Source: Escherichia coli (lineage in GTDB: Bacteria > Pseudomonadota > Gammaproteobacteria > Enterobacterales > Enterobacteriaceae). From it: 64,000 bases of DNA. Location: NCBI RefSeq assembly GCF_013315695.1, contig NZ_CP054353.1. The stretch is one strand, 5' to 3'. Positions 18,979 to 56,226 of the stretch are shown here, one piece after another (the first letter of the stretch is position 1; every line of letters begins with the position of its first letter). Below the pieces are notes generated by a model. The model was not told where the DNA came from, ran no database searches, and was given only the letters and a program-made list of their open reading frames with translations. Made by a program: the position numbers and the translations under genes.

Positions 18979-19033
18979 GGTGATGCTGCCAACTTACTGA
19001 TTTAGTGTATGATGGTGTTTTTGAGGTGCTCCA

Positions 19034-19309
19034 GTGGCTTCTGTTTCTATCAGCTGTCCCTCCTGTTCAGCTACTGACGGGGTGGTGCGTAACGGCAAAA
19101 GCACCGCCGGACATCAGCGCTATCTCTGCTCTCACTGCCGTAAAACATGGCAACTGCAGTTCACTTACACCGCTTCTCAACCCGGTACGCACCAGAAAAT
19201 CATTGATATGGCCATGAATGGCGTTGGATGCCGGGCAACAGCCCGCATTATGGGCGTTGGCCTCAACACGATTTTACGTCACTTAAAAAACTCAGGCCGC
19301 AGTCGGTAA
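19034..19309 (+). CDS. insA: IS1 InsA
   Basis: 91-aa [43 protein letters not shown]. Confidence 0.95.
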
Positions 19310-19731
19310 CCTCGCGCATACAGCCGGGCAGTGACGTCATCGTCTGCGCGGAAATGGACGAACAGTGGGGCTATGTCGGGGCTAAATCGCGCCAGCGCTG
19401 GCTGTTTTACGCGTATGACAGGCTCCGGAAGACGGTTGTTGCGCACGTATTCGGTGAACGCACTATGGCGACGCTGGGGCGTCTTATGAGCCTGCTGTCA
19501 CCCTTTGACGTGGTGATATGGATGACGGATGGCTGGCCGCTGTATGAATCCCGCCTGAAGGGAAAGCTGCACGTAATCAGCAAGCGATATACGCAGCGAA
19601 TTGAGCGGCATAACCTGAATCTGAGGCAGCACCTGGCACGGCTGGGACGGAAGTCGCTGTCGTTCTCAAAATCGGTGGAGCTGCATGACAAAGTCATCGG
19701 GCATTATCTGAACATAAAACACTATCAATAA
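19228..19731 (+). CDS. insB: IS1 InsB (transposase made as InsAB by -1 frameshift)
   Basis: 167-aa ORF overlapping insA; A-run slippery site upstream. Confidence 0.95.
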
Positions 19732-19746
19732 GTTGGAGTCATTACC

Positions 19747-20721
19747 GAAGCTCTCAATTTATGGGGAGATAAAGCCGAGATTATTCTCGCTCAACATCAC
19801 TGGCCAACCTGGGGCAACGATAACGTGGTCAAACTGCTTAAAAGCCAGCGTGATTTGTATCGTTACATCAATGATCAAACTCTGCGTATGGCAAATCAAG
19901 GGATGACCCGTGATGAAATTGCCGCAAACTTTAAACTGCCCTCTTCACTGGCTAATACCTGGGCGAATCGCGGCTATTACGGTTCGGTAAGTCATGACGT
20001 GAAAGCAACTTACGTGCTTTATCTCGGCTGGTTTGATGGTAACCCCGCGACGCTTGATGAACTGCCGCCAGAAGAAGGCGCAAAAAAATTCGTCGAGTAT
20101 ATGGGCGGTGCTGATGCCATTTTACAGAAAGCCAAACAGGATTATGACCAGGGTAATTTCCGCTGGGTTGCCCAAGTTGTTAGTAAGGTGGTGTTTACCG
20201 ATCCAAACAACCAGGCAGCGAGAAATCTGGAAGCTGATGCGCTTGAGCAGTTAGGCTATCAGGCTGAATCTGGGCCGTGGCGTAATTTCTATCTCACTGG
20301 CGCACAGGAATTGCGTAATGGCGTACAAAAATTACCAACACCAAATACTGCCAGCCCAGACACCGTGCGTGCGATGACGCCGGAGATGTTCTTTGATTAT
20401 CTTGCCGTCCATATTAATGGTGAGAAAGCGGCAGATGCCAAAACCGTGTTGAATTTCGATTTTGGTGAAGATGGCGGCACCTATAAAGTGGAGCTTGAAA
20501 ATGGTGTTCTCAATCATACCGCTGGTGTAGAGGCTTCGGATGCTGATGCCACTATCACTCTGTCTCGTGATGTATTGAACAAAATTGTACTGAAAGAAGA
20601 GACGCTGAAAGAAGCCACGGCCAAAGAAGATGTCAAAATTACTGGCAATGCGGAAAAACTCAACGAGCTGTTAGGTTATATGGATAATTTTGAATTTTGG
20701 TTCAATATAGTGACACCATAA
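19747..20721 (+). pseudogene. Alkyl/aryl-sulfatase C-terminal fragment (dimerisation and SCP2-like region)
   Basis: Open frame from IS1 junction through track ORF 19825..20721; same gene family as N-terminal fragment. Confidence 0.7.
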
Positions 20722-20733
20722 ATTTACTGCATA

Positions 20734-20758
20734 CCGGGCAGGTATCCTGCCCTTTTTT
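20734..20758 (+). terminator. Rho-independent terminator after sulfatase fragment
   Basis: ccgggcagg-tatc-cctgccc followed by TTTTTT. Confidence 0.5.
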
Positions 20759-20767
20759 GGTTAAAAA

Positions 20768-21865
20768 ATGGCTGAACGAAGAAAAACGCATCACTCATGG
20801 AAAACCCGCCGCGATATGGTTATTCGCGGCATGACGATTAGTTTGCCATGGTTTGCTTTTATCAATGTCAGTTTTGCATTGATAATTTTGCTGCGCCGTG
20901 TTCTGTTTAATGACCTTACTCCACCCTGGTTAAATGAAAAAAGCCTTATACATTCTATTGATATATCTGCAACGGGTATTCTGCTGATTTGCAGTGGTTT
21001 ACTACTCATCCCTCGGCAAAAAACATTACCTATCCAGGTGCTATTAGTTGCCCTGAGCCTGCTATGGTCATGGTGTAGTTATCACTTTATTGCGTACTGG
21101 ACGCTGCAGTTTGCTTATCCACTATGTGTATTATTAATGCTTAGTGGCGTTATCGCACTTTATTTCCATACCCCATCATTGCTCGCATTTGTCATTCCCT
21201 TATGGTTCACCACTCCAATAGCGAGTCTTATGCTTAATCAACAGATCAATATTCATTTTGCTGTTGTATGGTGTATTTTTTCACTGGCGCTATATGGTGG
21301 GCGACTCATTTTGTTACGTTGGTTTGAAGAAGCATGGGTACAAAACAGTTATAACAACCAGTTAATTAATCGCCTTGATGCATTAGCACATCGTGATCCT
21401 TTAACTGGGATAGCAAACCGACGTGCAATGAACAGTATCTTACACGACGCGATAGATAACGGCGGGTCATTTGCTCTTATTATGCTGGATGTCGATTTTT
21501 TTAAACGTTACAACGACACTTACGGGCATCCTGCTGGGGATCGTTGTCTAATACAAGTTGCCGACGCTCTACAGCGTTCAACTCGCCAGTCGGAGGATGT
21601 TGTTGTCCGTTATGGTGGCGAAGAGTTTGTCATCATACTTTTTAATGCAACATTGCCGGAAGCAGAGACGGTAGCAGCCAGAGTGAAGCAAGAACTTAAA
21701 CTGGCAGCTATCCCGCATCAGGCATCTGCTGTTAATGCATTCGTTACGGTTAGTCAGGGGATTACCTGTTCTGCTCCCGCAAAAACGGCTGAACAAATTA
21801 TTTCAGATGCCGACGCTGCGTTATACCGGGCGAAAGAAAGTGGGCGAAATCGATGGGAAAAATAA
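20768..21865 (+). CDS. Membrane-anchored diguanylate cyclase (GGDEF domain, GGEEF active site)
   Basis: N-terminal hydrophobic segments then RYGGEEF and DGC domain motifs; not a K-12 gene at this locus; start codon uncertain. Confidence 0.8.
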   Translation: MAERRKTHHSWKTRRDMVIRGMTISLPWFAFINVSFALIILLRRVLFNDLTPPWLNEKSLIHSIDISATGILLICSGLLLIPRQKTLPIQVLLVALSLLWSWCSYHFIAYWTLQFAYPLCVLLMLSGVIALYFHTPSLLAFVIPLWFTTPIASLMLNQQINIHFAVVWCIFSLALYGGRLILLRWFEEAWVQNSYNNQLINRLDALAHRDPLTGIANRRAMNSILHDAIDNGGSFALIMLDVDFFKRYNDTYGHPAGDRCLIQVADALQRSTRQSEDVVVRYGGEEFVIILFNATLPEAETVAARVKQELKLAAIPHQASAVNAFVTVSQGITCSAPAKTAEQIISDADAALYRAKESGRNRWEK

Positions 21866-22483
21866 TTAAATGATTCCATTCCTCTTTAGTATCCCTTTTA
21901 GCTTTGGTATCTGACATACAGCATCAGCAATCGCATTGATGTTCGGGGCATTATCCTGAAACCATTCGTGTCCCGGTCCCCATGTGCGCATGGTGCAGAG
22001 ATAACAGTCCACCAGCGTTAGTTGCTCTCCAAACACATACGGTTCAGCGGTCAATTGTGAATTCAGCCAGATATAAAGCGATTTACGATATTCAATAACA
22101 TTATTCTTTAACTGTTCGGGTGCGTCAGGAGCCCAACGCTTAGGGTAATCGGCGAAAGTGAACGTTGGATAGACATTAGCAACCAGCCAGACCAATAACC
22201 GTTGAAACTGCTAGCGTTCGGTGCGCCCAACCGGTGGCGCAAGGTCCGGGCGACGATCGAGAACCATCAATGCAATCGCCGCTGTCTCCGTCATAATCTC
22301 GTCATTTTCCAGCGCCAGTGTCGGAATCTGACACAACGGGTTCAGGGTTTTCAATAAATCGCGTGAAGTTCCCTCGTGGTCAAAACCACTGACATCAACG
22401 AACTGATAAGGAATATCAGCCAGTGTTAGCATCATCTCACTGATTGTAGTGCCCCATCCGGGTACGCCATACACCTTAATCAT
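21866..22483 (-). pseudogene. yncG: Glutathione S-transferase-like protein with in-frame amber (TAG) codon at 22211..22213
   Basis: Track ORFs 22211..22483 and 21866..22195 are in the same frame separated by a single TAG; together they cover GST N- and C-domains. Confidence 0.8.
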
Positions 22484-22749
22484 ATGCCCCTCACAATCTT
22501 TTAAAGATTAAGTCTAGGACAGCACACAGGTTAACCAGCAAAAGTATTTGTCATTTTTTCGTCAGTTGTATTATTCCCCTTCAGGATTGTAAGGGGATGT
22601 TTTGCATCGTTTATCGATAACGGGTAGGATGCTGCGCCGATAGTTTTATACCCATAAAGAATAATGGTGATAACTATCATCGCCAGGATGAATAAACATT
22701 GTTCATGGCAACTTATATGACTTTTTCATTAAAGCAATCAGGGAGAGCA

Positions 22750-24249
22750 ATGAGTAAACACGACACCGACACTTCAGATCAACACGCCGCGAAACGCCGC
22801 TGGCTTAATGCCCACGAAGAGGGGTATCACAAAGCGATGGGCAATCGCCAGGTACAGATGATCGCCATTGGCGGCGCGATTGGCACCGGCTTGTTTTTAG
22901 GTGCAGGAGCCCGACTGCAAATGGCGGGTCCAGCACTGGCACTGGTTTATTTGATCTGCGGCCTGTTTTCATTTTTTATTCTGCGTGCATTGGGTGAGCT
23001 GGTGTTACACCGCCCTTCCAGTGGCAGTTTTGTCTCTTATGCCCGTGAGTTTTTGGGTGAGAAAGCCGCTTATGTTGCTGGCTGGATGTACTTCATCAAC
23101 TGGGCGATGACGGGGATTGTTGATATTACCGCCGTCGCTCTGTATATGCATTACTGGGGTGCGTTTGGCGGCGTGCCGCAGTGGGTCTTTGCGCTCGCTG
23201 CGCTGACCATCGTTGGCACCATGAATATGATTGGTGTGAAATGGTTTGCGGAGATGGAGTTCTGGTTTGCGCTTATTAAAGTGCTCGCCATCGTGACCTT
23301 TTTGGTCGTGGGTACAGTGTTCCTCGGTAGCGGTCAGCCGCTGGATGGCAACGCCACTGGCTTTCATTTAATTACCGATAACGGCGGCTTTTTCCCCCAC
23401 GGTTTGCTGCCTGCGCTGGTGTTGATTCAGGGCGTAGTGTTTGCTTTTGCCTCCATTGAAATGGTGGGTACAGCGGCCGGAGAATGTAAAGATCCGCAGA
23501 CCATGGTGCCTAAAGCGATTAACAGTGTGATTTGGCGTATTGGTCTGTTTTACGTCGGCTCCGTGGTGTTGCTGGTTATGTTATTGCCGTGGAGCGCGTA
23601 TCAGGCGGGGCAAAGTCCGTTCGTGACGTTTTTCTCTAAACTGGGTGTGCCATATATCGGCAGCATTATGAACATTGTGGTGCTGACCGCTGCCCTCTCC
23701 AGCCTGAATTCAGGTCTGTACTGCACCGGGCGTATTCTGCGCTCGATGGCGATGGGCGGTTCCGCACCGAGTTTTATGGCGAAAATGAGTCGTCAGCATG
23801 TGCCGTATGCCGGGATTCTGGCGACACTGGTTGTGTATGTCGTCGGCGTATTCCTCAACTATCTGGTGCCGTCGCGCGTATTTGAGATTGTGTTGAACTT
23901 CGCGTCGCTGGGAATCATCGCTTCATGGGCGTTTATCATCGTGTGCCAGATGCGCCTGCGTAAAGCGATTAAAGAAGGCAAAGCAGCGGATGTCAGTTTT
24001 AAACTGCCTGGCGCGCCCTTCACTTCCTGGCTGACATTACTGTTTTTACTGAGTGTCCTGGTGCTGATGGCGTTCGATTACCCGAACGGGACTTATACTA
24101 TCGCGGCGCTGCCGATTATCGGTATTCTGCTGGTTATAGGCTGGTTTGGTGTGCGCAAACGCGTTGCTGAAATTCACAGCACTGCGCCAGTCGTCGAGGA
24201 AGATGAAGAAAAACAGGAAATTGTGTTTAAACCTGAAACGGCGAGTTAA
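22750..24249 (+). CDS. ansP: L-asparagine permease (APC family)
   Basis: Start MSKHDTDTSDQ inside track ORF 22699..24249; 499 aa. Confidence 0.9.
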   Translation: MSKHDTDTSDQHAAKRRWLNAHEEGYHKAMGNRQVQMIAIGGAIGTGLFLGAGARLQMAGPALALVYLICGLFSFFILRALGELVLHRPSSGSFVSYAREFLGEKAAYVAGWMYFINWAMTGIVDITAVALYMHYWGAFGGVPQWVFALAALTIVGTMNMIGVKWFAEMEFWFALIKVLAIVTFLVVGTVFLGSGQPLDGNATGFHLITDNGGFFPHGLLPALVLIQGVVFAFASIEMVGTAAGECKDPQTMVPKAINSVIWRIGLFYVGSVVLLVMLLPWSAYQAGQSPFVTFFSKLGVPYIGSIMNIVVLTAALSSLNSGLYCTGRILRSMAMGGSAPSFMAKMSRQHVPYAGILATLVVYVVGVFLNYLVPSRVFEIVLNFASLGIIASWAFIIVCQMRLRKAIKEGKAADVSFKLPGAPFTSWLTLLFLLSVLVLMAFDYPNGTYTIAALPIIGILLVIGWFGVRKRVAEIHSTAPVVEEDEEKQEIVFKPETAS

Positions 24250-24257
24250 TTGCAAAA

Positions 24258-24280
24258 TTGCCCGGCTGCGTGCCGGGCAA
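24258..24280. terminator. Hairpin between convergent ansP and yncE (candidate bidirectional terminator)
   Basis: ttgcccggc-tgcg-tgccgggcaa. Confidence 0.45.
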
Positions 24281-24361
24281 ATTCAAATTACTGAAGAAGG
24301 TGCCGGATACGGCGTGATAAAAGTCAGGCAAGTCTCTCCGTTTTCACCCTCGCCATATCTA

Positions 24362-25423
24362 TTACAGCGCAATACGAATCACATCGTCCGGCTGGGTAGC
24401 TTCCTGCTGTTTAGTGGATTTTTGTTTCACACTGACATACAGCGTTTTGCCATCTGCAGACAGCGCCAGGCTGTTCGGATGAGTCGGCGTATCGAACGTT
24501 TTCACCACTTTATAGCTTTTCGCGTCAATCACACTGACTTTACCTGCCTGACGATGCGTCACGTAGGCTTCATTACGCGCTGGGTTAAACAGCACAGCCA
24601 GTGATTCCGGTGCCGCAACCTTCGCAAGAATATTGCCATTACGGGTATCAACCACTAACACTTCTGCCGCTTTAGAATCGGTGATAAATGCACGCTGATT
24701 GGTGGTATCAAGGCTGATGTTGATAAAGAAGTGCTCTTTGTCGTCATCCAGCAGCTTTTTACGGCTGAGGATTTTATTGTCGGCGGTGTCGATGGTAATC
24801 AATTCGCCGTCAGCGTTAGTGGTGTAAAGACGTTTGCCTTTGCTATCCAGCGCTAAACCGGTACTCATTTTACCGGTGTTCTGGATGGCGGTTTTCAGTT
24901 TGATATTCTCGCCATCAACGACCCAAATCACGCTCTCTTTACCAATACCACTGATGTAAACGGTGTTCGTGGCATCATCAGCTACCAGCTCACGCGGTTG
25001 CAGCGGGCGCACCTCTTCCGTGCGCTTACGATCATCCAGCACCAGACGGCCTTTCACTTCGCCCGTTTTGGCATCTATCGCCGTGACCGCGCTGTTTACA
25101 GTGTTACCAAACCACAACGTCTGAGTCGTGTTATTGATGGTGGCACCAAACGGCTTGAGATCGTTATGGATCGCCTGCGTCACTTCCAGAGTAACCGGAT
25201 CAAGACGATAAACCACGCCGCCTTTATCCAGTTTGCGGCTTTGCGAAGTGGCGAGCCACAGCGCGTTTTCTTGCTGGCTATAAGCCATTTCGTAGGCACC
25301 TTTACCTACCGCTTTACGCAGCATTTCTTCTGCGGCCTGCGTACTGAATGATGAAGCAACAAGCAATGAACCTAACAGTAATGAACCACGCAGGCGCGAT
25401 GAAAACAGATGACGTAAATGCAT
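24362..25423 (-). CDS. yncE: PQQ-like beta-propeller protein (periplasmic)
   Basis: 353 aa with signal peptide, synteny. Confidence 0.88.
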   Translation of the reverse strand: MHLRHLFSSRLRGSLLLGSLLVASSFSTQAAEEMLRKAVGKGAYEMAYSQQENALWLATSQSRKLDKGGVVYRLDPVTLEVTQAIHNDLKPFGATINNTTQTLWFGNTVNSAVTAIDAKTGEVKGRLVLDDRKRTEEVRPLQPRELVADDATNTVYISGIGKESVIWVVDGENIKLKTAIQNTGKMSTGLALDSKGKRLYTTNADGELITIDTADNKILSRKKLLDDDKEHFFINISLDTTNQRAFITDSKAAEVLVVDTRNGNILAKVAAPESLAVLFNPARNEAYVTHRQAGKVSVIDAKSYKVVKTFDTPTHPNSLALSADGKTLYVSVKQKSTKQQEATQPDDVIRIAL

Positions 25424-25507
25424 GACGACTCCCTTTGATGAACCGATATTTTTGCTGCTTCACAATGCTTCGCTAAGCGTAATCATCGTTACGCCCTTGT
25501 TATAAAT

Positions 25508-25527
25508 GGGAATGGTAATCATTATTT
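25508..25527. promoter_or_regulatory. Putative Fur box in yncE-yncD divergent intergenic region
   Basis: gggaatggtaatcattattt resembles GATAATGATAATCATTATC consensus. Confidence 0.5.
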
Positions 25528-25665
25528 TCTCAAATGTGGAGCATTTCTTGCCGTTACGACTACAATTTTCTCAATTACTTAACGTATCGTGCCGTTTCGT
25601 TTTCCATAAATTTACAATTTTATTACTATGACGGTGTTTTCCCCATTCTTAACCTGGCTTTTTTC

Positions 25666-27768
25666 ATGAAGATTTTTTCCGTCCAACAGACCGTTTTGCC
25701 CGCACTGCTTGTCCTTTCCCCCGTTGTTTTTGCCGCTGATGAACAGACCATGATTGTCAGTGCCGCACCGCAGGTGGTTTCAGAACTGGATACCCCAGCA
25801 GCCGTGAGCGTGGTGGATGGCGAGGAGATGCGCCTGGCAACACCGCGCATTAACTTGTCTGAATCACTGACCGGAGTGCCTGGTTTACAAGTACAAAACC
25901 GGCAGAACTATGCGCAAGATTTACAGCTGTCGATTCGCGGATTTGGCTCCCGCTCCACTTACGGAATTCGTGGTATTCGCCTGTATGTGGACGGTATTCC
26001 CGCCACCATGCCCGACGGACAAGGGCAGACATCCAACATCGATTTAAGCAGTGTGCAAAATGTGGAAGTGCTGCGTGGCCCCTTCTCTGCTCTGTATGGC
26101 AACGCGTCTGGAGGTGTAATGAATGTCATCACCCAGACCGGACAACAGCCACCAACCATTGAAGCCAGTAGTTACTACGGCAGTTTTGGCAGCTGGCGCT
26201 ATGGGCTGAAAGCAACAGGCGCAACGGGCGACGGCACACAGCCTGGCGATGTCGATTACACCGTCTCAACCACGCGTTTTACGACCCACGGCTATCGTGA
26301 CCATAGTGGCGCACAGAAAAATTTAGCCAATGCCAAACTGGGCGTTCGCATTGATGAAGCCAGCAAATTAAGCCTGATTTTCAATAGTGTGGATATCAAA
26401 GCAGATGACCCAGGTGGGCTAACCAAAGCAGAATGGAAGGCGAATCCACAACAAGCGCCTCGTGCAGAACAGTACGACACGCGAAAAACCATCAAGCAAA
26501 CTCAGGCTGGGTTGCGCTATGAGCGTAGCCTGAGCGCGCAAGATGATATGAGTGTGATGATGTATGCCGGAGAGCGAGAAACGACCCAGTACCAGTCAAT
26601 CCCCATGGCCCCGCAACTTAACCCGTCACATGCGGGCGGCGTGATTACTCTGCAACGCCATTACCAGGGGATAGACAGCCGCTGGACACACCGTGGTGAA
26701 CTGGGCGTTCCGCTCACGTTCACTACCGGCCTGAACTACGAAAACATGAGTGAAAACCGCAAGGGCTACAATAACTTCCGCCTGAATAGCGGCGTGCCGG
26801 AATACGGGCAAAAAGGTGAGTTGCGCCGCGACGAACGCAATCTGATGTGGAACGTCGATCCCTATTTACAGACGCAGTGGCAGCTGAGCGAAAAACTGTC
26901 GCTGGATGCTGGCGTGCGCTACAGCTCCGTGTGGTTTGATTCCAACGACCATTACGTTACTCCGGGTAACGGCGATGACAGCGGTGATGCCAGTTATCAC
27001 AAATGGCTACCTGCCGGTTCGTTAAAATATGCAATGACCGATGCCTGGAATATCTATCTGGCAGCCGGGCGAGGTTTTGAAACGCCGACGATTAATGAGC
27101 TGTCTTATCGTGCTGACGGTCAAAGCGGTATGAACTTTGGTTTAAAACCCTCCACCAACGATACAATTGAGATCGGCAGTAAAACGCGTATTGGTGATGG
27201 GCTGCTTAGTCTCGCATTGTTCCAGACCGACACCGATGATGAAATTGTTGTCGATAGCAGTAGCGGTGGGCGTACGACTTACAAAAATGCCGGAAAGACC
27301 CGTCGTCAAGGCGCTGAACTGGCATGGGATCAACGTTTCGCGGGAGATTTTCGCGTAAAAGCGTCCTGGACCTGGCTCGATGCGACCTATCGCAGCAATG
27401 TGTGCAATGAACAGGATTGTAACGGTAACCGGATGCCAGGGATCGCCCGTAATATGGGCTTTGCGTCGATAGGTTATGTACCGGAGGATGGCTGGTATGC
27501 AGGTACGGAAGCGCGTTATATGGGCGATATTATGGCAGATGATGAAAATACGGCCAAAGCGCCGTCTTATACTCTCGTCGGCTTATTCACCGGGTATAAA
27601 TACAATTACCACAATTTAACTGTGGATTTATTTGGTCGTGTCGATAATTTATTCGATAAAGAATACGTTGGTTCTGTCATTGTCAATGAGTCAAACGGGC
27701 GATATTACGAACCTGCACCCGGGCGAAATTATGGTGTCGGCATGAATATTGCGTGGCGATTTGAGTAA
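25666..27768 (+). CDS. yncD: TonB-dependent outer-membrane receptor
   Basis: Start MKIFSVQQTVLPALLVLSPVVFA inside track ORF; C-terminal ...AWRFE; 700 aa. Confidence 0.88.
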   Translation: MKIFSVQQTVLPALLVLSPVVFAADEQTMIVSAAPQVVSELDTPAAVSVVDGEEMRLATPRINLSESLTGVPGLQVQNRQNYAQDLQLSIRGFGSRSTYGIRGIRLYVDGIPATMPDGQGQTSNIDLSSVQNVEVLRGPFSALYGNASGGVMNVITQTGQQPPTIEASSYYGSFGSWRYGLKATGATGDGTQPGDVDYTVSTTRFTTHGYRDHSGAQKNLANAKLGVRIDEASKLSLIFNSVDIKADDPGGLTKAEWKANPQQAPRAEQYDTRKTIKQTQAGLRYERSLSAQDDMSVMMYAGERETTQYQSIPMAPQLNPSHAGGVITLQRHYQGIDSRWTHRGELGVPLTFTTGLNYENMSENRKGYNNFRLNSGVPEYGQKGELRRDERNLMWNVDPYLQTQWQLSEKLSLDAGVRYSSVWFDSNDHYVTPGNGDDSGDASYHKWLPAGSLKYAMTDAWNIYLAAGRGFETPTINELSYRADGQSGMNFGLKPSTNDTIEIGSKTRIGDGLLSLALFQTDTDDEIVVDSSSGGRTTYKNAGKTRRQGAELAWDQRFAGDFRVKASWTWLDATYRSNVCNEQDCNGNRMPGIARNMGFASIGYVPEDGWYAGTEARYMGDIMADDENTAKAPSYTLVGLFTGYKYNYHNLTVDLFGRVDNLFDKEYVGSVIVNESNGRYYEPAPGRNYGVGMNIAWRFE

Positions 27769-27793
27769 TTACCTTGATGCCCGGTATTTGCTG

Positions 27794-27802
27794 GGCATTT
27801 AC
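27794..27802. repeat. 9-bp target-site duplication (ggcatttac), left copy, IS1 copy 2
   Basis: Identical 9-mer immediately flanks both IS1 ends. Confidence 0.8.
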
Positions 27803-27817
27803 GGTAATGACTCCAAC

Positions 27818-28321
27818 TTATTGATAGTGTTTTATGTTCAGATAATGCCCGATGACTTTGTCATGCAGCTCCACCGATTTTGAGAACGACAGCGACTTCC
27901 GTCCCAGCCGTGCCAGGTGCTGCCTCAGATTCAGGTTATGCCGCTCAATTCGCTGCGTATATCGCTTGCTGATTACGTGCAGCTTTCCCTTCAGGCGGGA
28001 TTCATACAGCGGCCAGCCATCCGTCATCCATATCACCACGTCAAAGGGTGACAGCAGGCTCATAAGACGCCCCAGCGTCGCCATAGTGCGTTCACCGAAT
28101 ACGTGCGCAACAACCGTCTTCCGGAGCCTGTCATACGCGTAAAACAGCCAGCGCTGGCGCGATTTAGCCCCGACATAGCCCCACTGTTCGTCCATTTCCG
28201 CGCAGACGATGACGTCACTGCCCGGCTGTATGCGCGAGGTTACCGACTGCGGCCTGAGTTTTTTAAGTGACGTAAAATCGTGTTGAGGCCAACGCCCATA
28301 ATGCGGGCTGTTGCCCGGCAT
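27818..28321 (-). CDS. insB: IS1 InsB
   Basis: Identical translation to other copies. Confidence 0.95.
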
Positions 28322-28515
28322 CCAACGCCATTCATGGCCATATCAATGATTTTCTGGTGCGTACCGGGTTGAGAAGCGGTGTAAGTGAACTGCAGTTGCC
28401 ATGTTTTACGGCAGTGAGAGCAGAGATAGCGCTGATGTCCGGCGGTGCTTTTGCCGTTACGCACCACCCCGTCAGTAGCTGAACAGGAGGGACAGCTGAT
28501 AGAAACAGAAGCCAC
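28240..28515 (-). CDS. insA: IS1 InsA
   Basis: Identical translation to other copies. Confidence 0.95.
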
Positions 28516-28570
28516 TGGAGCACCTCAAAAACACCATCATACACTAAATCAGTAAGTTGGCAGCATCACC

Positions 28571-28579
28571 GGCATTTAC
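28571..28579. repeat. 9-bp target-site duplication (ggcatttac), right copy, IS1 copy 2
   Basis: See left copy. Confidence 0.8.
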
Positions 28580-28580
28580 T

Positions 28581-29246
28581 TTAACGATTGTATTGCTGAT
28601 ATAAAATAGCAATATTTTGTTGCATAATTTCAGCAAGACAATGTCTGCATCCCTCTTTGTCTTTTGCTTTTAACGCGGCGAGTAATAGATGATAGTTTTC
28701 TATACGCTCCCGTAATTCCGCTGGATTGATCGCTTCATAGAGATAATGTAAACCAGGTCCCATCCTGACCCACAGTTGCTCAATCATCTCACACAGGATG
28801 GGCATATTTGAACGATGATAAATCGCTAAGCGAAATAGCCTGTTCGCATCAATGATTTGTTCCATGTCGCCCTTTTCTTGCGCCTGCTGTAATTTCTCGA
28901 GCAATTCCTCTAGTTCCGCCAGGTCTTGCGGGGTGAGGTTTTCAACAGCCAGAGTAACTGCCATTAATTCCAGCTCGTAGCGGATCCGATTGATTTCGTC
29001 TAATTGACGTTTCCCCACTTCCGGAACTGTAAATGCTTGCGCTGGTGCGACAGAAAGCGCATTCACCGAAACCAGACGTAATAATGCTTCACGCACAGGT
29101 GTAATACTCATACCTAATTGCTCCGCCAGATTTTTAGTAATCAGGCGTGCGCCAGGTTTTAGTGCGCCAATACTAAGCTGATGTTTCAGGTCGTTCTCAA
29201 CCTGCAGAGTCAAACTGACATGTTTCATTTTTTCCGTTCCAGGCAT
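28581..29246 (-). CDS. mcbR: GntR-family transcriptional regulator
   Basis: 221 aa, N-terminal HTH, FCD domain; synteny downstream of curA. Confidence 0.88.
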   Translation of the reverse strand: MPGTEKMKHVSLTLQVENDLKHQLSIGALKPGARLITKNLAEQLGMSITPVREALLRLVSVNALSVAPAQAFTVPEVGKRQLDEINRIRYELELMAVTLAVENLTPQDLAELEELLEKLQQAQEKGDMEQIIDANRLFRLAIYHRSNMPILCEMIEQLWVRMGPGLHYLYEAINPAELRERIENYHLLLAALKAKDKEGCRHCLAEIMQQNIAILYQQYNR

Positions 29247-29444
29247 TTTACTTCCTTCGCGTGTTTTCTGTCCAACCCTGCCTGCATGGCAGAAGGAGTT
29301 AACCTGGGGTATTAAAGTGAATAATCATAAACCACTCACCTTTGTTGTTATTAGCAGCAGAACAATGACGTGGTTAGTTAATTAAAGCTGAAAATAAGCT
29401 TTTTGCCTGGATTTTTATGGCGGCTTTACGCCGCCGTCGTATCT

Positions 29445-30482
29445 TTAATCATCACCCGCCACGCGGATCACCACTTTGCCGAAGTTTTTACCCTTCAGCA
29501 GGCCGATAAACGTCTGTGGCGCATTCTCTAAACCGTCAGTAATTTCTTCGCGGTAGTGGATTTTATCCTCTTTCACCCATTGCCCCATCTCCTTCTGAAA
29601 CTCATGGATGCGGTGACCATAATCCTGAGCAATAATAAACCCTTGCAAGCGAATACGTTTTTTCAGCACCGTAGCCATCAACAAAGGTAAACGATCCGGA
29701 CCGGGTGGTAGCTCTGTAGCGTTATAGCTGCTCACTAAGCCGCAGACGGGAATGCGCGCAGATGTATTAAGTAACGGTAGCACCGCATCAAATACTTTAC
29801 CGCCCACGTTTTCATAATAGATATCAATACCTTTTGGGCACGCTTTCTCCAGTTGTTCGGCAAAATCATCCGCGTGATGGTCAAGACAAACATCAAAGCC
29901 TAACACCTCGGTAGCATGGCGGCATTTTTCCGCGCCACCGGCAACCCCCACCACCCTGCAACCTTTAAGTTTGCCGATTTGCCCCACCGTTGCTCCCACA
30001 GGACCTGTCGCCGCCGCAACCACCAGCGTTTCGCCCTCTTTAGGCTGACCGATATCCAGCAGCCCCATATAAGCAGTAAAGCCTGGCATCCCCAGCACAC
30101 CCAGCGACCACGATGGATTTTGCGGATGATCGCCAAGTTTCACCAGTTCATCACCACTGGATATGTCATAGTCCTGCCATCCACTGTAGCCCAGTACCCA
30201 GTCGCCAGGCTGATAATCAGGATGATTCGACTCCACGACACGGCTCACCGTACCGCCGACCATCACGCCGCCAATATCAACCGGCGGTGAATAAGATGGC
30301 TCATCGCTCATACGTCCACGCATATACGGGTCCAGTGACAAATAAACTGTGCGCAGTAACACTTGTCCTTCACCCGGTGTGGCGACATCATCTTCTTCAA
30401 GACGGAAATTCTCCGGAACCGGTGCGCCATGCGGACGCGAGGCCAGAACCCAACGGCGGTTACGCTGCTTTTGTTGCCCCAT
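29445..30482 (-). CDS. curA: NADPH-dependent curcumin/dihydrocurcumin reductase (MDR family)
   Basis: Start MGQQKQRNRRWVLASRPHG inside track ORF 29445..30575; 345 aa. Confidence 0.88.
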   Translation of the reverse strand: MGQQKQRNRRWVLASRPHGAPVPENFRLEEDDVATPGEGQVLLRTVYLSLDPYMRGRMSDEPSYSPPVDIGGVMVGGTVSRVVESNHPDYQPGDWVLGYSGWQDYDISSGDELVKLGDHPQNPSWSLGVLGMPGFTAYMGLLDIGQPKEGETLVVAAATGPVGATVGQIGKLKGCRVVGVAGGAEKCRHATEVLGFDVCLDHHADDFAEQLEKACPKGIDIYYENVGGKVFDAVLPLLNTSARIPVCGLVSSYNATELPPGPDRLPLLMATVLKKRIRLQGFIIAQDYGHRIHEFQKEMGQWVKEDKIHYREEITDGLENAPQTFIGLLKGKNFGKVVIRVAGDD

Positions 30483-30662
30483 AATGCTCTCCTGTGCTTT
30501 TGGCATGAATCCATCAATAGTAGCAGGCTCGCAGGAATGGTTTTGTTTGCAGCCGTCACATCCCCTCTGCAACACGCAATAATTTCATCGAGGAATCCGT
30601 TGCTTCGGGCTGTTTTCGATAGTATTGATAACGTCATCATCATTATTTTATTGAGGCCAAAC

Positions 30663-31181
30663 ATGTCCATCCGTTTTGCCCGCAAAGCCGACTGTGCTGC
30701 CATTGCGGAAATTTATAACCACGCCGTGTTGTATACGGCGGCTATCTGGAATGACCAAACGGTGGATGCAGATAATCGCATTGCCTGGTTTGAAGCGCGG
30801 ACTTTAGCTGGTTATCCAGTGCTGGTGAGTGAACAAGATGGCGTAGTGACGGGATATGCCTCGTTTGGCGACTGGCGTAGTTTCGATGGTTTTCGCCATA
30901 CCGTGGAACATTCGGTTTATGTCCATCCCGATCATCAGGGCAAAGGTCTGGGGCGTAAATTGTTAAGCCGATTGATTGATGAAGCGCGGGATTGCGGGAA
31001 GCATGTCATGGTCGCCGGGATCGAATCGCAAAATCAGGCTTCGCTGCATCTCCACCAGTCGCTGGGATTTGTCATCACCGCACAAATGCCGCAGGTGGGC
31101 ACTAAATTTGGGCGCTGGCTGGATCTGACATTTATGCAGTTGCAACTCGACGAGCGCACTGAACCGGACGCGATTGGATGA
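30663..31181 (+). CDS. mnaT: GNAT acetyltransferase (L-amino acid N-acyltransferase)
   Basis: Start MSIRFARKADCAAIAEIYN inside track ORF; 172 aa. Confidence 0.88.
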   Translation: MSIRFARKADCAAIAEIYNHAVLYTAAIWNDQTVDADNRIAWFEARTLAGYPVLVSEQDGVVTGYASFGDWRSFDGFRHTVEHSVYVHPDHQGKGLGRKLLSRLIDEARDCGKHVMVAGIESQNQASLHLHQSLGFVITAQMPQVGTKFGRWLDLTFMQLQLDERTEPDAIG

Positions 31182-31627
31182 ATCAGTCGCTCACCCTTGC
31201 TTTTTTGATTGCCGCCGGAATTGGTCTGGTAGTCCAGAACACGCTGATGGTGCGCATCACCCAGACCTCCTCTACCATTCTCATCGCCATGTTGCTGAAC
31301 TCACTGGTGGGGATTGTGCTCTTTGTTTCTATTTTATGGTTTAAACAAGGTATGGCGGGGTTTGGCGAACTGGTGTCCAGCGTGCGCTGGTGGACACTTA
31401 TACCTGGCTTGCTGGGATCGTTTTTTGTCTTCGCCAGTATCAGCGGATATCAGAATGTGGGAGCGGCGACAACTATTGCAGTACTGGTCGCCAGCCAGCT
31501 GATTGGCGGTCTGGTGCTGGATATCTTTCGCAGTCATGGCGTACCACTACGGGCGTTGTTCGGCCCAATTTGTGGCGCAATTTTACTTGTGGTTGGCGCC
31601 TGGCTGGTGGCCAGGCGCACATTTTAA
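31178..31627 (+). CDS. ydcZ: Inner-membrane protein (DUF606)
   Basis: 149 aa hydrophobic, ATGA overlap with mnaT. Confidence 0.85.
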   Translation: MNQSLTLAFLIAAGIGLVVQNTLMVRITQTSSTILIAMLLNSLVGIVLFVSILWFKQGMAGFGELVSSVRWWTLIPGLLGSFFVFASISGYQNVGAATTIAVLVASQLIGGLVLDIFRSHGVPLRALFGPICGAILLVVGAWLVARRTF

Positions 31628-31861
31628 TCAGAGGATGGTGCCACCTTTGGTTAACTGTTCGTGGCGCGCTTCCATATCTTCTTTATGTTTGCGACCGTGA
31701 TGGGCGATCGCTGTGCGCAGACGCTGCTGCTGGGTATAGCGTTCTTCCCGACTTAACTCCGCGTCATCGCTCAGGGCGATTAATAATTCGTTCATATGGG
31801 CAATGACGCTCTCTTCAATCGCGGCATCCACGCGCGCGATGACTTCATCCAGATGCGACAT
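31628..31861 (-). CDS. ydcY: Small uncharacterised protein
   Basis: 77 aa, synteny. Confidence 0.8.
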   Translation of the reverse strand: MSHLDEVIARVDAAIEESVIAHMNELLIALSDDAELSREERYTQQQRLRTAIAHHGRKHKEDMEARHEQLTKGGTIL

Positions 31862-31946
31862 ACTTTCTCCTTAGCCACTTGTGAAATTTATCGATTCATC
31901 CAAATGATATAAGTCTGCGTGGTGCCGTCAAGCCAGTGAGTAAGAT

Positions 31947-32024
31947 TTAAAACAGTGAAAACAACAGCGCCACCGGGAAACTCATCGGCCATGTTGCCCC
32001 CACCAGAAAGGCGCTTAAGAAACG
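31947..32024 (-). pseudogene. ortT: 3' remnant (last 25 codons) of small toxin gene ortT (ydcX), 5' part removed at IS1 junction
   Basis: Minus-strand frame from the IS1 junction reads RFLSAFLVGATWPMSFPVALLFSLF-stop, matching OrtT C-terminus. Confidence 0.65.
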
Positions 32025-32079
32025 GGTGATGCTGCCAACTTACTGATTTAGTGTATGATGGTGTTTTTGAGGTGCTCCA

Positions 32080-32355
32080 GTGGCTTCTGTTTCTATCAGC
32101 TGTCCCTCCTGTTCAGCTACTGACGGGGTGGTGCGTAACGGCAAAAGCACCGCCGGACATCAGCGCTATCTCTGCTCTCACTGCCGTAAAACATGGCAAC
32201 TGCAGTTCACTTACACCGCTTCTCAACCCGGTACGCACCAGAAAATCATTGATATGGCCATGAATGGCGTTGGATGCCGGGCAACAGCCCGCATTATGGG
32301 CGTTGGCCTCAACACGATTTTACGTCACTTAAAAAACTCAGGCCGCAGTCGGTAA
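32080..32355 (+). CDS. insA: IS1 InsA
   Basis: Identical translation to other copies. Confidence 0.95.
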
Positions 32356-32777
32356 CCTCGCGCATACAGCCGGGCAGTGACGTCATCGTCTGCGCGGAAA
32401 TGGACGAACAGTGGGGCTATGTCGGGGCTAAATCGCGCCAGCGCTGGCTGTTTTACGCGTATGACAGGCTCCGGAAGACGGTTGTTGCGCACGTATTCGG
32501 TGAACGCACTATGGCGACGCTGGGGCGTCTTATGAGCCTGCTGTCACCCTTTGACGTGGTGATATGGATGACGGATGGCTGGCCGCTGTATGAATCCCGC
32601 CTGAAGGGAAAGCTGCACGTAATCAGCAAGCGATATACGCAGCGAATTGAGCGGCATAACCTGAATCTGAGGCAGCACCTGGCACGGCTGGGACGGAAGT
32701 CGCTGTCGTTCTCAAAATCGGTGGAGCTGCATGACAAAGTCATCGGGCATTATCTGAACATAAAACACTATCAATAA
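32274..32777 (+). CDS. insB: IS1 InsB
   Basis: Identical translation to other copies. Confidence 0.95.
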
Positions 32778-32846
32778 GTTGGAGTCATTACCGGATTTTC
32801 TTAACCCGTACTATACACATAGGGGCAATGATAAAAGGTGGCAAAA

Positions 32847-40038: not shown

Positions 40039-40147
40039 TATCGAATCGTTATTATGTGCAGGTGATTCGGCAGTCTATATCAGTTGTTAAAAATGACAAC
40101 TTTTCATTAACTGTTATCAAACCATCACCAGCGATAACTCCTTGCCT

Positions 40148-40183
<36 letters not shown>

Positions 40184-40358
40184 TTACCTCCGTGTGTAAT
40201 GTGCTCGAAAATAGCACTAAATCGCCGCAACGGCAGAATGCTATGCAAAATCAGGAAGGAAGATTCCAGAATTTCTTTGCGCTAATTTGCAAAACTGAAT
40301 AATAACCTCAAGAAACGATCGGCATCATAGCGTCAAAAGGTTAGAAAAAGGTGGCGGG

Positions 40359-55273: not shown

Positions 55274-55479
55274 TGACCAAAAACCTCTTTGCGTCACATT
55301 TTTACAACAATTATGGCAGAGAAGAATAATGCCATTGGAATGAAGAGAGTAACGAACGGCTAAACCGAATGACGAAAAATTCTGGAAAACAGCACGCAAT
55401 TTCGTCAAGTGATTATTTTCGTCCCTAAGGAAACCTCATAGGATGCCTGCGGGTGCCTGAGACTTTCTGTTTTCAGGCT

Positions 55480-55538
55480 AACCGGGAATCAGAAAGACGA
55501 AGGCCCCGACCGATATTTCTATCAACCGAGGCCAACGA

Positions 55539-55550
<12 letters not shown>
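55480..55550 (-). ncRNA. sokB: sokB antisense RNA (approximate extent); promoter -35 TTGCCG / 17 bp / -10 TATGAT on minus strand at about 55557..55585
   Basis: Near-consensus sigma-70 promoter reading antisense into mokB start region, as in hok/sok loci. Confidence 0.45.
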
Positions 55551-55746
<196 letters not shown>

Positions 55747-56161: not shown

Positions 56162-56226
56162 CTTCCGATGTAGGCCCGTATTCTTCGCCTGTACCACGGG
56201 TCGGTTTTAGTACAGGCGTTTTCTTT
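56162..56226 (+). ncRNA. rydC: RydC-like Hfq-dependent sRNA
   Basis: cttccgatgtaggcccgtattcttcgcctgtaccacgggtcggttttagtacaggcgttttcttt: 5' seed then hairpin gcctgtac/gtacaggc plus U-run; in the ydcA-cybB gap. Confidence 0.6.

Follow-up and report, generated by a model that had tools for sequence, protein, structure and literature searches.

The closest described relatives of the element studied here are the IS1 copies of Escherichia coli K-12. IS1A of that strain is a 768-bp element with terminal repeats, open reading frames, a slippery site and a 9-bp target duplication. The activity of K-12 IS1 copies depends on their context: IS1A is shielded by the rpsT terminator, and IS1E is read into from upstream yhhZ promoters (PMC12428005). 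Upstream host transcription entering IS1 raised both insAB' transcription and transposition in K-12, and blocking it with the rrnB terminator lowered both (PMC12428005). The same study refers to Machida et al. 1983 on read-through from the flank that affects IS1 and calls the effect similar to its own, while the title of Machida et al. 1983 states repression of cointegration. Transcription can also leave the element, because fusion promoters can take their -35 hexamer from an IS1 end, as in bla-TEM-1 activation (Prentki et al. 1986, cited in PMC9330008); such promoters need a correctly spaced -10 in the flank (PMC9330008).

Here we analysed one IS1 copy in a 64,000-nt stretch of E. coli DNA (contig NZ_CP054353.1; hereafter the window), which carries three such copies; the one under study is the second (copy 2). 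It shares with K-12 IS1A its length, terminal repeats, ORFs, slippery site and 9-bp duplication, and differs from it by one substitution (element position 325, plus-strand layout) and in chromosomal location, the K-12 site being empty here. Like IS1E, copy 2 lies in tandem directly downstream of a host gene (mcbR) with no hairpin between them, whereas IS1A has the rpsT terminator as a shield. As in the bla-TEM-1 case, an outward -35-like TTGGCA is present in the IS1 end, but no good -10 stands at the required distance in the flank and the neighbouring gene is directed at the IS, which leaves nothing to be activated.

Anatomy of the insertion and its target duplication

Copy 2 is an IS1A-type element of 768 bp at 27803-28570 on the minus strand, with its IRR end toward pqqU and its IRL end toward mcbR. 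Its boundaries were set independently of any flanking repeat, by 100% identity over the same 768 bp to the two other copies of the window (18979-19746 and 32025-32792); identity to IS1A of K-12 MG1655 was 767/768. The original prediction had read identical 9-mers on both flanks, and our recount confirmed them: GGCATTTAC stands at 27794-27802 and again at 28571-28579, exactly 768 bp (27803-28570) lie between the two copies, and not one further base is identical on either side. With the IS1 boundaries fixed in advance, two pre-specified flanking 9-mers would be identical by chance with a probability of ~4e-6. Elsewhere in the 64 kb, GGCATTTAC occurs at only two other places on the same strand.

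The unoccupied form of the target was found in the IS-free relative MS 21-1, where BLAST alignments of the left and right flanks overlapped by exactly 9 bp (L002 12272-12280), corresponding to the left copy of the duplication. GGCATTTAC occurs once each in the empty sites of MS 21-1 and K-12. Because the 9-mer flanks the element twice and occurs once in the empty site, it is the footprint of staggered cleavage and gap repair: the DDE transposase cut the target with a 9-nt stagger, and repair of the gaps then produced the two copies of GGCATTTAC.

All parts of the element were found intact. The element ends in IRR, the right terminal inverted repeat (27803-27825, minus strand; tip GGTAATGACTCC), and in IRL, the left one (28548-28570, minus strand; tip GGTGATGCTGCC on that strand), and 18 of the first 23 bases of IRR match the reverse complement of the other end. 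Length and ends thus have the form of the family, 768 bp with imperfect inverted repeats of ~23 bp (18/23). The insA ORF (28240-28515, minus strand) encodes 91 aa with a zinc ribbon and an HTH (PF03811, 1.3e-21; PF12759, 4.7e-31), and the insB' frame (27818-28321, minus strand) encodes the DDE catalytic part (PF03400 DDE_Tnp_IS1, 2.3e-78); the scores for all three Pfam families were far above the curated cut-offs. An intact slippery motif, TTAAAAAAC (A6C), lies at 28258-28266 on the minus strand as the site of the -1 programmed frameshift. The -1 fusion frame of InsAB' (27818-28515) is open over 232 aa, and RefSeq annotates a programmed frameshift. An inward promoter-like site in IRL, CTGCCA-16-TATGAT (28536-28563, minus strand), scored 9/12 in the consensus scan; from its expected position, we take it to be the IS1 insA promoter. 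The element agreed with the IS1 family in every feature that can be tested on sequence, namely its length and ends, insA and insB', the A6C site, the 8-/9-bp duplication, and near-identity to the reference. The presence of three identical copies within 14 kb suggests recent activity.

The neighbouring genes converge on the element. On the left, pqqU (formerly yncD; 25666-27768, plus strand) encodes an intact TonB-dependent PQQ receptor of 700 aa, identified by the Pfam Plug and TonB_dep_Rec_b-barrel domains and by RefSeq. On the right, mcbR (formerly yncC; 28581-29246, minus strand) encodes an intact GntR/FCD-family regulator of 221 aa (Pfam GntR and FCD), and its protein accession, WP_001119575.1, is shared by IS-bearing and IS-free genomes. 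The distances given in the original prediction were reproduced: the pqqU stop ends at 27768, so that 34 nt precede the first IS1 base, and the mcbR stop (28581-28583, minus strand) is separated by 1 nt from the outer end of the right-hand 9-mer and by 10 nt from the end of IS1 proper. Its central claim, a simple IS1 transposition with a 9-bp duplication between the convergent genes, likewise held, with both coding sequences intact. We conclude with high confidence that the element is an ordinary, recent and lineage-specific IS1 jump that placed a complete IS1A-type copy in the 35-bp pqqU-mcbR spacer and left both genes untouched. This is an insertion of a known kind, with textbook anatomy, and is already annotated in RefSeq for strain MSB1_4I.

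The spacer hairpin and transcription across the IS1 ends

In the native state, 35 bp (TTACCTTGATGCCCGGTATTTGCTGGGCATTTACT) separate the two stop codons. This spacer holds one hairpin, at 27776-27799 on the plus strand, whose 10-pair stem is formed by 27776-27785 and 27790-27799 around a 4-nt loop (27786-27789). It is a stable, GC-rich stem-loop at a gene 3' end. From RNA folding and position, this hairpin is likely the intrinsic terminator of pqqU; we read it in this way because it is followed by UUACUUUA on the pqqU strand, while the tail of the hairpin on the mcbR strand is U-poor. The hairpin was kept in 17/17 of the comparison loci still carrying the spacer hairpin. In a consensus terminator scan, the spacer hairpin was called at neither site, empty or filled, and the scan therefore could not reveal the loss of a terminator; the miss may come from maximal stem extension, which uses up part of the T-run.

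One base of the 3' arm differs among strains, window position 27792 being T in this lineage and C in K-12 and most strains. With T, the pqqU strand keeps a G-U pair, and the predicted fold was -16.4 kcal/mol (z = -2.7) for the empty site of this lineage and -18.6 kcal/mol for the K-12 variant. The mcbR strand acquires an A-C mismatch, and its fold weakened from -15.6 kcal/mol in the K-12 variant to -9.4 kcal/mol in the empty site of this lineage. This difference between the strands hints at a hairpin with a larger role for pqqU than for mcbR.

The last 6 nt of the hairpin 3' arm and 3 bases of the tail make up the duplicated 9-mer. Judged from sequence and folding, the cut would have fallen in the 3' arm and T-tract of the only hairpin of the spacer. 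After insertion, the whole hairpin stands on the pqqU side, and only the distal T-run is replaced by IS1: the tail after the stem on the pqqU strand changed from UUACUUUA (5 U in 8) in the empty site to UUACGGUA (3 in 8). The pqqU transcript would thus keep its hairpin, but its U-tract would be shorter and pairing with the IS1 tip would lengthen the stem. On the other side, mcbR now lies 777 bp from the hairpin. The sequence now 3' of mcbR shows no structure (-8.7 kcal/mol, z = +0.3) and runs straight into IRL and insA in the sense direction. By the same folding, mcbR would lose the hairpin, and its transcripts could enter IS1, sense to insA, 10 nt past the stop. The original prediction that both genes had probably had their native terminators replaced or separated by the insertion stood in part: mcbR has been separated from the hairpin and the pqqU tail has been altered, but there is a single hairpin rather than two terminators, and pqqU retained it.

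Little was found to suggest transcription in the outward direction. The standard promoter scan returned only the inward promoter-like site in IRL, and neither the standard nor the relaxed scan found an outward promoter at the IRR end. The only outward candidate created by the IS was a weak one of the relaxed scan (9/12), TTGGCA in IRL, 17 nt and then TTTAAC in the flank (28557-28585, plus strand), running antisense to mcbR; its -10 hexamer is without the conserved A2 and T6, and the standard scan did not call it. The remaining candidates of the relaxed scan were native and present in the empty site too. At neither end did a -35 in the IS end, a spacing of 16-18 nt, a functional -10 and a co-directed gene come together as in IS-generated fusion promoters. 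The suggestion of IS1-derived outward transcription into either gene was accordingly not borne out: no credible promoter was found, and because both genes converge on IS1, outward RNA would be antisense and could not express pqqU or mcbR. On the sequence evidence, no gene is predicted to be switched on by IS1.

A more concrete consequence, absent from the original prediction, is that mcbR transcription could now read into IS1 in the sense direction of insA. In the light of the published work, such read-in could change insAB' expression and transposition frequency, in a direction on which the accounts differ. The sign of any effect on IS1 activity is uncertain, because PMC12428005 reports an increase and the title of Machida et al. 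1983 says repression. For the host, the phenotypic effect is most likely small or none.

Distribution of the insertion and recurrent IS1 use of the junction

We searched a set of 5,426 complete E. coli genomes for the empty and the filled site. The empty-site query was the 518-bp sequence left after deletion of the element and one 9-mer; it matched at 100% and in one piece in 4 genomes, one of them MS 21-1, and was covered to at least 80% in 4,337/5,426. The empty site anticipated in K-12 is present in MG1655, with 1 SNP (C-to-T, in the hairpin). For the filled site, a 400-bp probe across the left junction gave a 100% one-piece match in 1/5,426 genomes, MSB1_4I (NZ_LR898874.1; human rectal swab, Australia). 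Its RefSeq gene order is pqqU, 'IS1-like element IS1A family transposase', mcbR, with both genes intact, and the window differs from it at 6 of 40,400 aligned bases, none in or near copy 2, so that the window derives from this strain or from one very closely related to it. The exact left junction had 0 hits in a metagenome scan, which is uninformative as IS junctions rarely assemble. In the literature, a search for mcbR with IS1 returned only a false match ('McBroom', in a long-term evolution experiment paper), and a search for the strain name returned nothing relevant.

MS 21-1 is ~99.95-99.99% identical to the window in the flanking DNA and is without all three IS1 copies. Because this relative is near-identical in the flanks yet IS-free, the three insertions are recent. 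For copy 2 in particular, its presence in 1/5,426 genomes, the empty site of a near-identical relative and the identity of the three copies in the window point to a recent, lineage-specific event.

The two other copies, both on the plus strand and identical to copy 2, are without a target duplication. Copy 1 (18979-19746) replaces ~387 bp of the MS 21-1 sequence inside an alkyl/aryl-sulfatase gene and leaves two pseudogene fragments. Copy 3 (32025-32792) replaces ~236 bp, comprising the 5' part of the toxin gene ortT and upstream sequence, and a 78-nt ortT remnant stands beside yncL. Such losses are what adjacent deletion mediated by IS1 is expected to produce (PMC9330008), and the loss at copy 1 is probably of this kind. 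Copy 3 of MSB1_4I differs from that of the window at two bases (window 32124 and 32286). The three 100% identical copies lie within 13.8 kb (18979-32792), in a genome with at least 40 IS1 places, a local clustering that hints at hops over short distances or at a burst of recent date. We also asked whether copy 2 takes part in a composite transposon or in an inversion with the copies at 18979 and 32025, which are inverted relative to it. Both ideas were rejected: the genes stand in the same order as in MS 21-1 and K-12, and copy 2 has retained a duplication of its own.

Several other features of the window were recorded. Above the Rfam gathering scores were a SECIS_3 selenocysteine insertion element (864-922, minus strand), the sok antitoxin RNA of a hok/sok locus (55451-55602, plus strand) and the small RNA RydC (56162-56225, plus strand). 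RefSeq annotation of the near-identical genome gives yncG (~21866-22483; L001 14264-14881) as a pseudogene with an internal stop and places a truncated HicB antitoxin remnant at ~40117-40194 (L001 32515-32592). Both defects are unrelated to IS1, because they are also found in the IS-free relative.

The same junction has received IS1 in other strains. Probes for each orientation detected IS1 within a few hundred bp of it in 23/5,426 genomes (13 + 10). Mapping of 15 loci gave 14 distinct positions, or 15 with that of the window, and two unmapped hits would raise the number to 17. As a control, probes of identical design were directed at the convergent ansP-yncE junction nearby and found 0 + 1 genomes. 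These other insertions in the pqqU 3' end, the spacer or mcbR (E1620, Z142-3, XJ6.2, ABW_A32/33, B27, CUVET19-1426 and others) are of the same family, fall in the same target region and have 8-/9-bp duplications, but they are independent events that differ in position, in orientation (10/23 opposite) and in IS1 subtype (91-99% identity). Most of them interrupt or delete mcbR, whereas copy 2 spares it. Five independent events, those of the window, E1620, Z142-3, XJ6.2 with ABW_A32/33, and B27 (loci L010-L015), fall within 20 bp, at window positions 27784-27802 plus 28580 (L002 12262-12281), which comprise the hairpin loop, 3' arm and T-tract. In E1620 the target is shifted by 1 bp (GCATTTACT), and a 94%-identical IS1 sits in the opposite orientation. 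A uniform model would expect ~0.23 events in 20 bp (P ~5e-6), a null that is crude and unrealistic for IS1. Two different strains from one Qingdao hospital source, Z142-1 (L007) and Z142-3 (L012), each carry an IS1B near the junction, and these differ in position and orientation, one being at the mcbR 3' end and the other in the hairpin.

A native 11-mer, GGTAATTACTC (27763-27773, minus strand), spans the pqqU stop codon and matches the IS1 IRR tip at 10/11 bases. With at most one mismatch allowed, no other match to this tip outside IS1 was found in the 64 kb, where 0.74 would be expected over the whole window. The 11-mer faces the IRR tip across a distance of 29 bp. Predicted folds paired it with the IRR tip around the hairpin in the RNA of either strand, at -26.6 kcal/mol (plus) and -21.0 kcal/mol (minus). 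The likeness may be coincidental. Inspection by eye for an IHF-like core (WATCAANNNNTTR) next to the site showed only an off-by-one spacing. In strain A23, an unrelated IS1 insertion in yjgN (L020) has the flank cgtatttgctgggcgatttg, with 13 consecutive bases and a similar duplication in common with window 27783-27802. Flank likeness as a target consensus was rejected: the control ansP flank, unrelated to this site, also gave best hits that reached 20-38 nt into the flank, which is probably a selection effect of taking the best of tens of thousands.

Origin and meaning of the insertion

Four other accounts of copy 2 or its effects were weighed against an ordinary, recent transposition. A repeated element may be misplaced by an assembler, and the genome has at least 40 IS1 places; moreover, the sole other genome with this junction is near-identical to the window and may be the same isolate. 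However, the empty site has the 9-bp sequence only once, and its perfect duplication around the element marks a real transposition and is not what a misjoin would produce, which makes an assembly artefact extremely improbable. It is very unlikely that outward transcription from IS1 drives or perturbs the flanking genes. The ability of IS1 ends to donate a -35 hexamer (PMC9330008, citing Prentki 1986) and the position of the IRL TTGGCA 17 nt upstream of TTTAAC in the flank would favour it, but that -10 is without A2 and T6, the standard scan was silent, nothing faces out of IRR, and both genes converge on the IS. An adaptive origin, in which the insertion was selected for altering mcbR or pqqU expression by mRNA destabilising or extension, antisense transcription or polarity, would gain from the repeated IS1 hits on the junction and mcbR (23/5,426 genomes at 15 mapped and probably 17 positions, compared with 1 genome at ansP-yncE) and from the many junction insertions that truncate or delete mcbR. 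Copy 2, however, leaves both coding sequences intact; the insertions show no orientation bias (13 vs 10) and are scattered in position, and almost every allele is a singleton instead of marking an expanded clade. The region is AT-rich, with 27-30% GC in 60-bp windows just beyond the site, which fits the A/T-rich target preference of IS1 (PMC9330008), and an insertion between convergent genes costs little. We consider selection for the insertion distinctly unlikely.

The recurrence also bears on how the site was chosen. A specific determinant beyond AT-richness and tolerance could be GGTAATTACTC, acting as a pseudo-end bound by InsA or InsAB', or a cruciform-prone hairpin. Five independent events in 20 bp, in both orientations and with different IS1 subtypes, where ~0.23 were expected (P ~5e-6), argue for such a determinant, as does the fact that nothing else in the 64 kb, IS1 itself apart, comes as close to the IRR tip as GGTAATTACTC. 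Set against this, the motif was noticed post hoc, with a rough chance of ~0.1-0.5% for such a match within 50 bp; the uniform null is unrealistic for IS1 and a single control locus was compared; and insertions also spread across 400 bp of mcbR, far from GGTAATTACTC. The orientation bias that a pseudo-end might predict was not found among the 23 genomes (13 vs 10). A determinant of either kind is unlikely, as is the fuller proposal that the hairpin is a sequence- or structure-determined IS1 hot spot in which a GGTAATTACTC pseudo-end recruits InsA or InsAB' and steers insertions to the adjacent 20 bp. AT-rich adjacent DNA and a low-cost spacer would both favour IS1 landing.

Taken as an ordinary IS1 jump, copy 2 is of little importance, being one strain-specific insertion with neighbouring genes intact and no activation predicted. 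As a lineage marker, it can tell the MSB1_4I lineage apart from IS-free relatives, MS 21-1 among them, and the lineage illustrates IS1 expansion, with three identical copies in 14 kb, two of them tied to small deletions. If the hot spot were true, copies in this orientation would gain mcbR read-in and become unusually active donors, a possible reason why three identical IS1 copies are clustered here within 14 kb. That IS1 has repeatedly landed in the spacer and in mcbR in unrelated E. coli is a modest curiosity at the level of populations, and the junction could offer a natural setting in which to study IS1 target choice and the effect of host read-in on IS1 activity.
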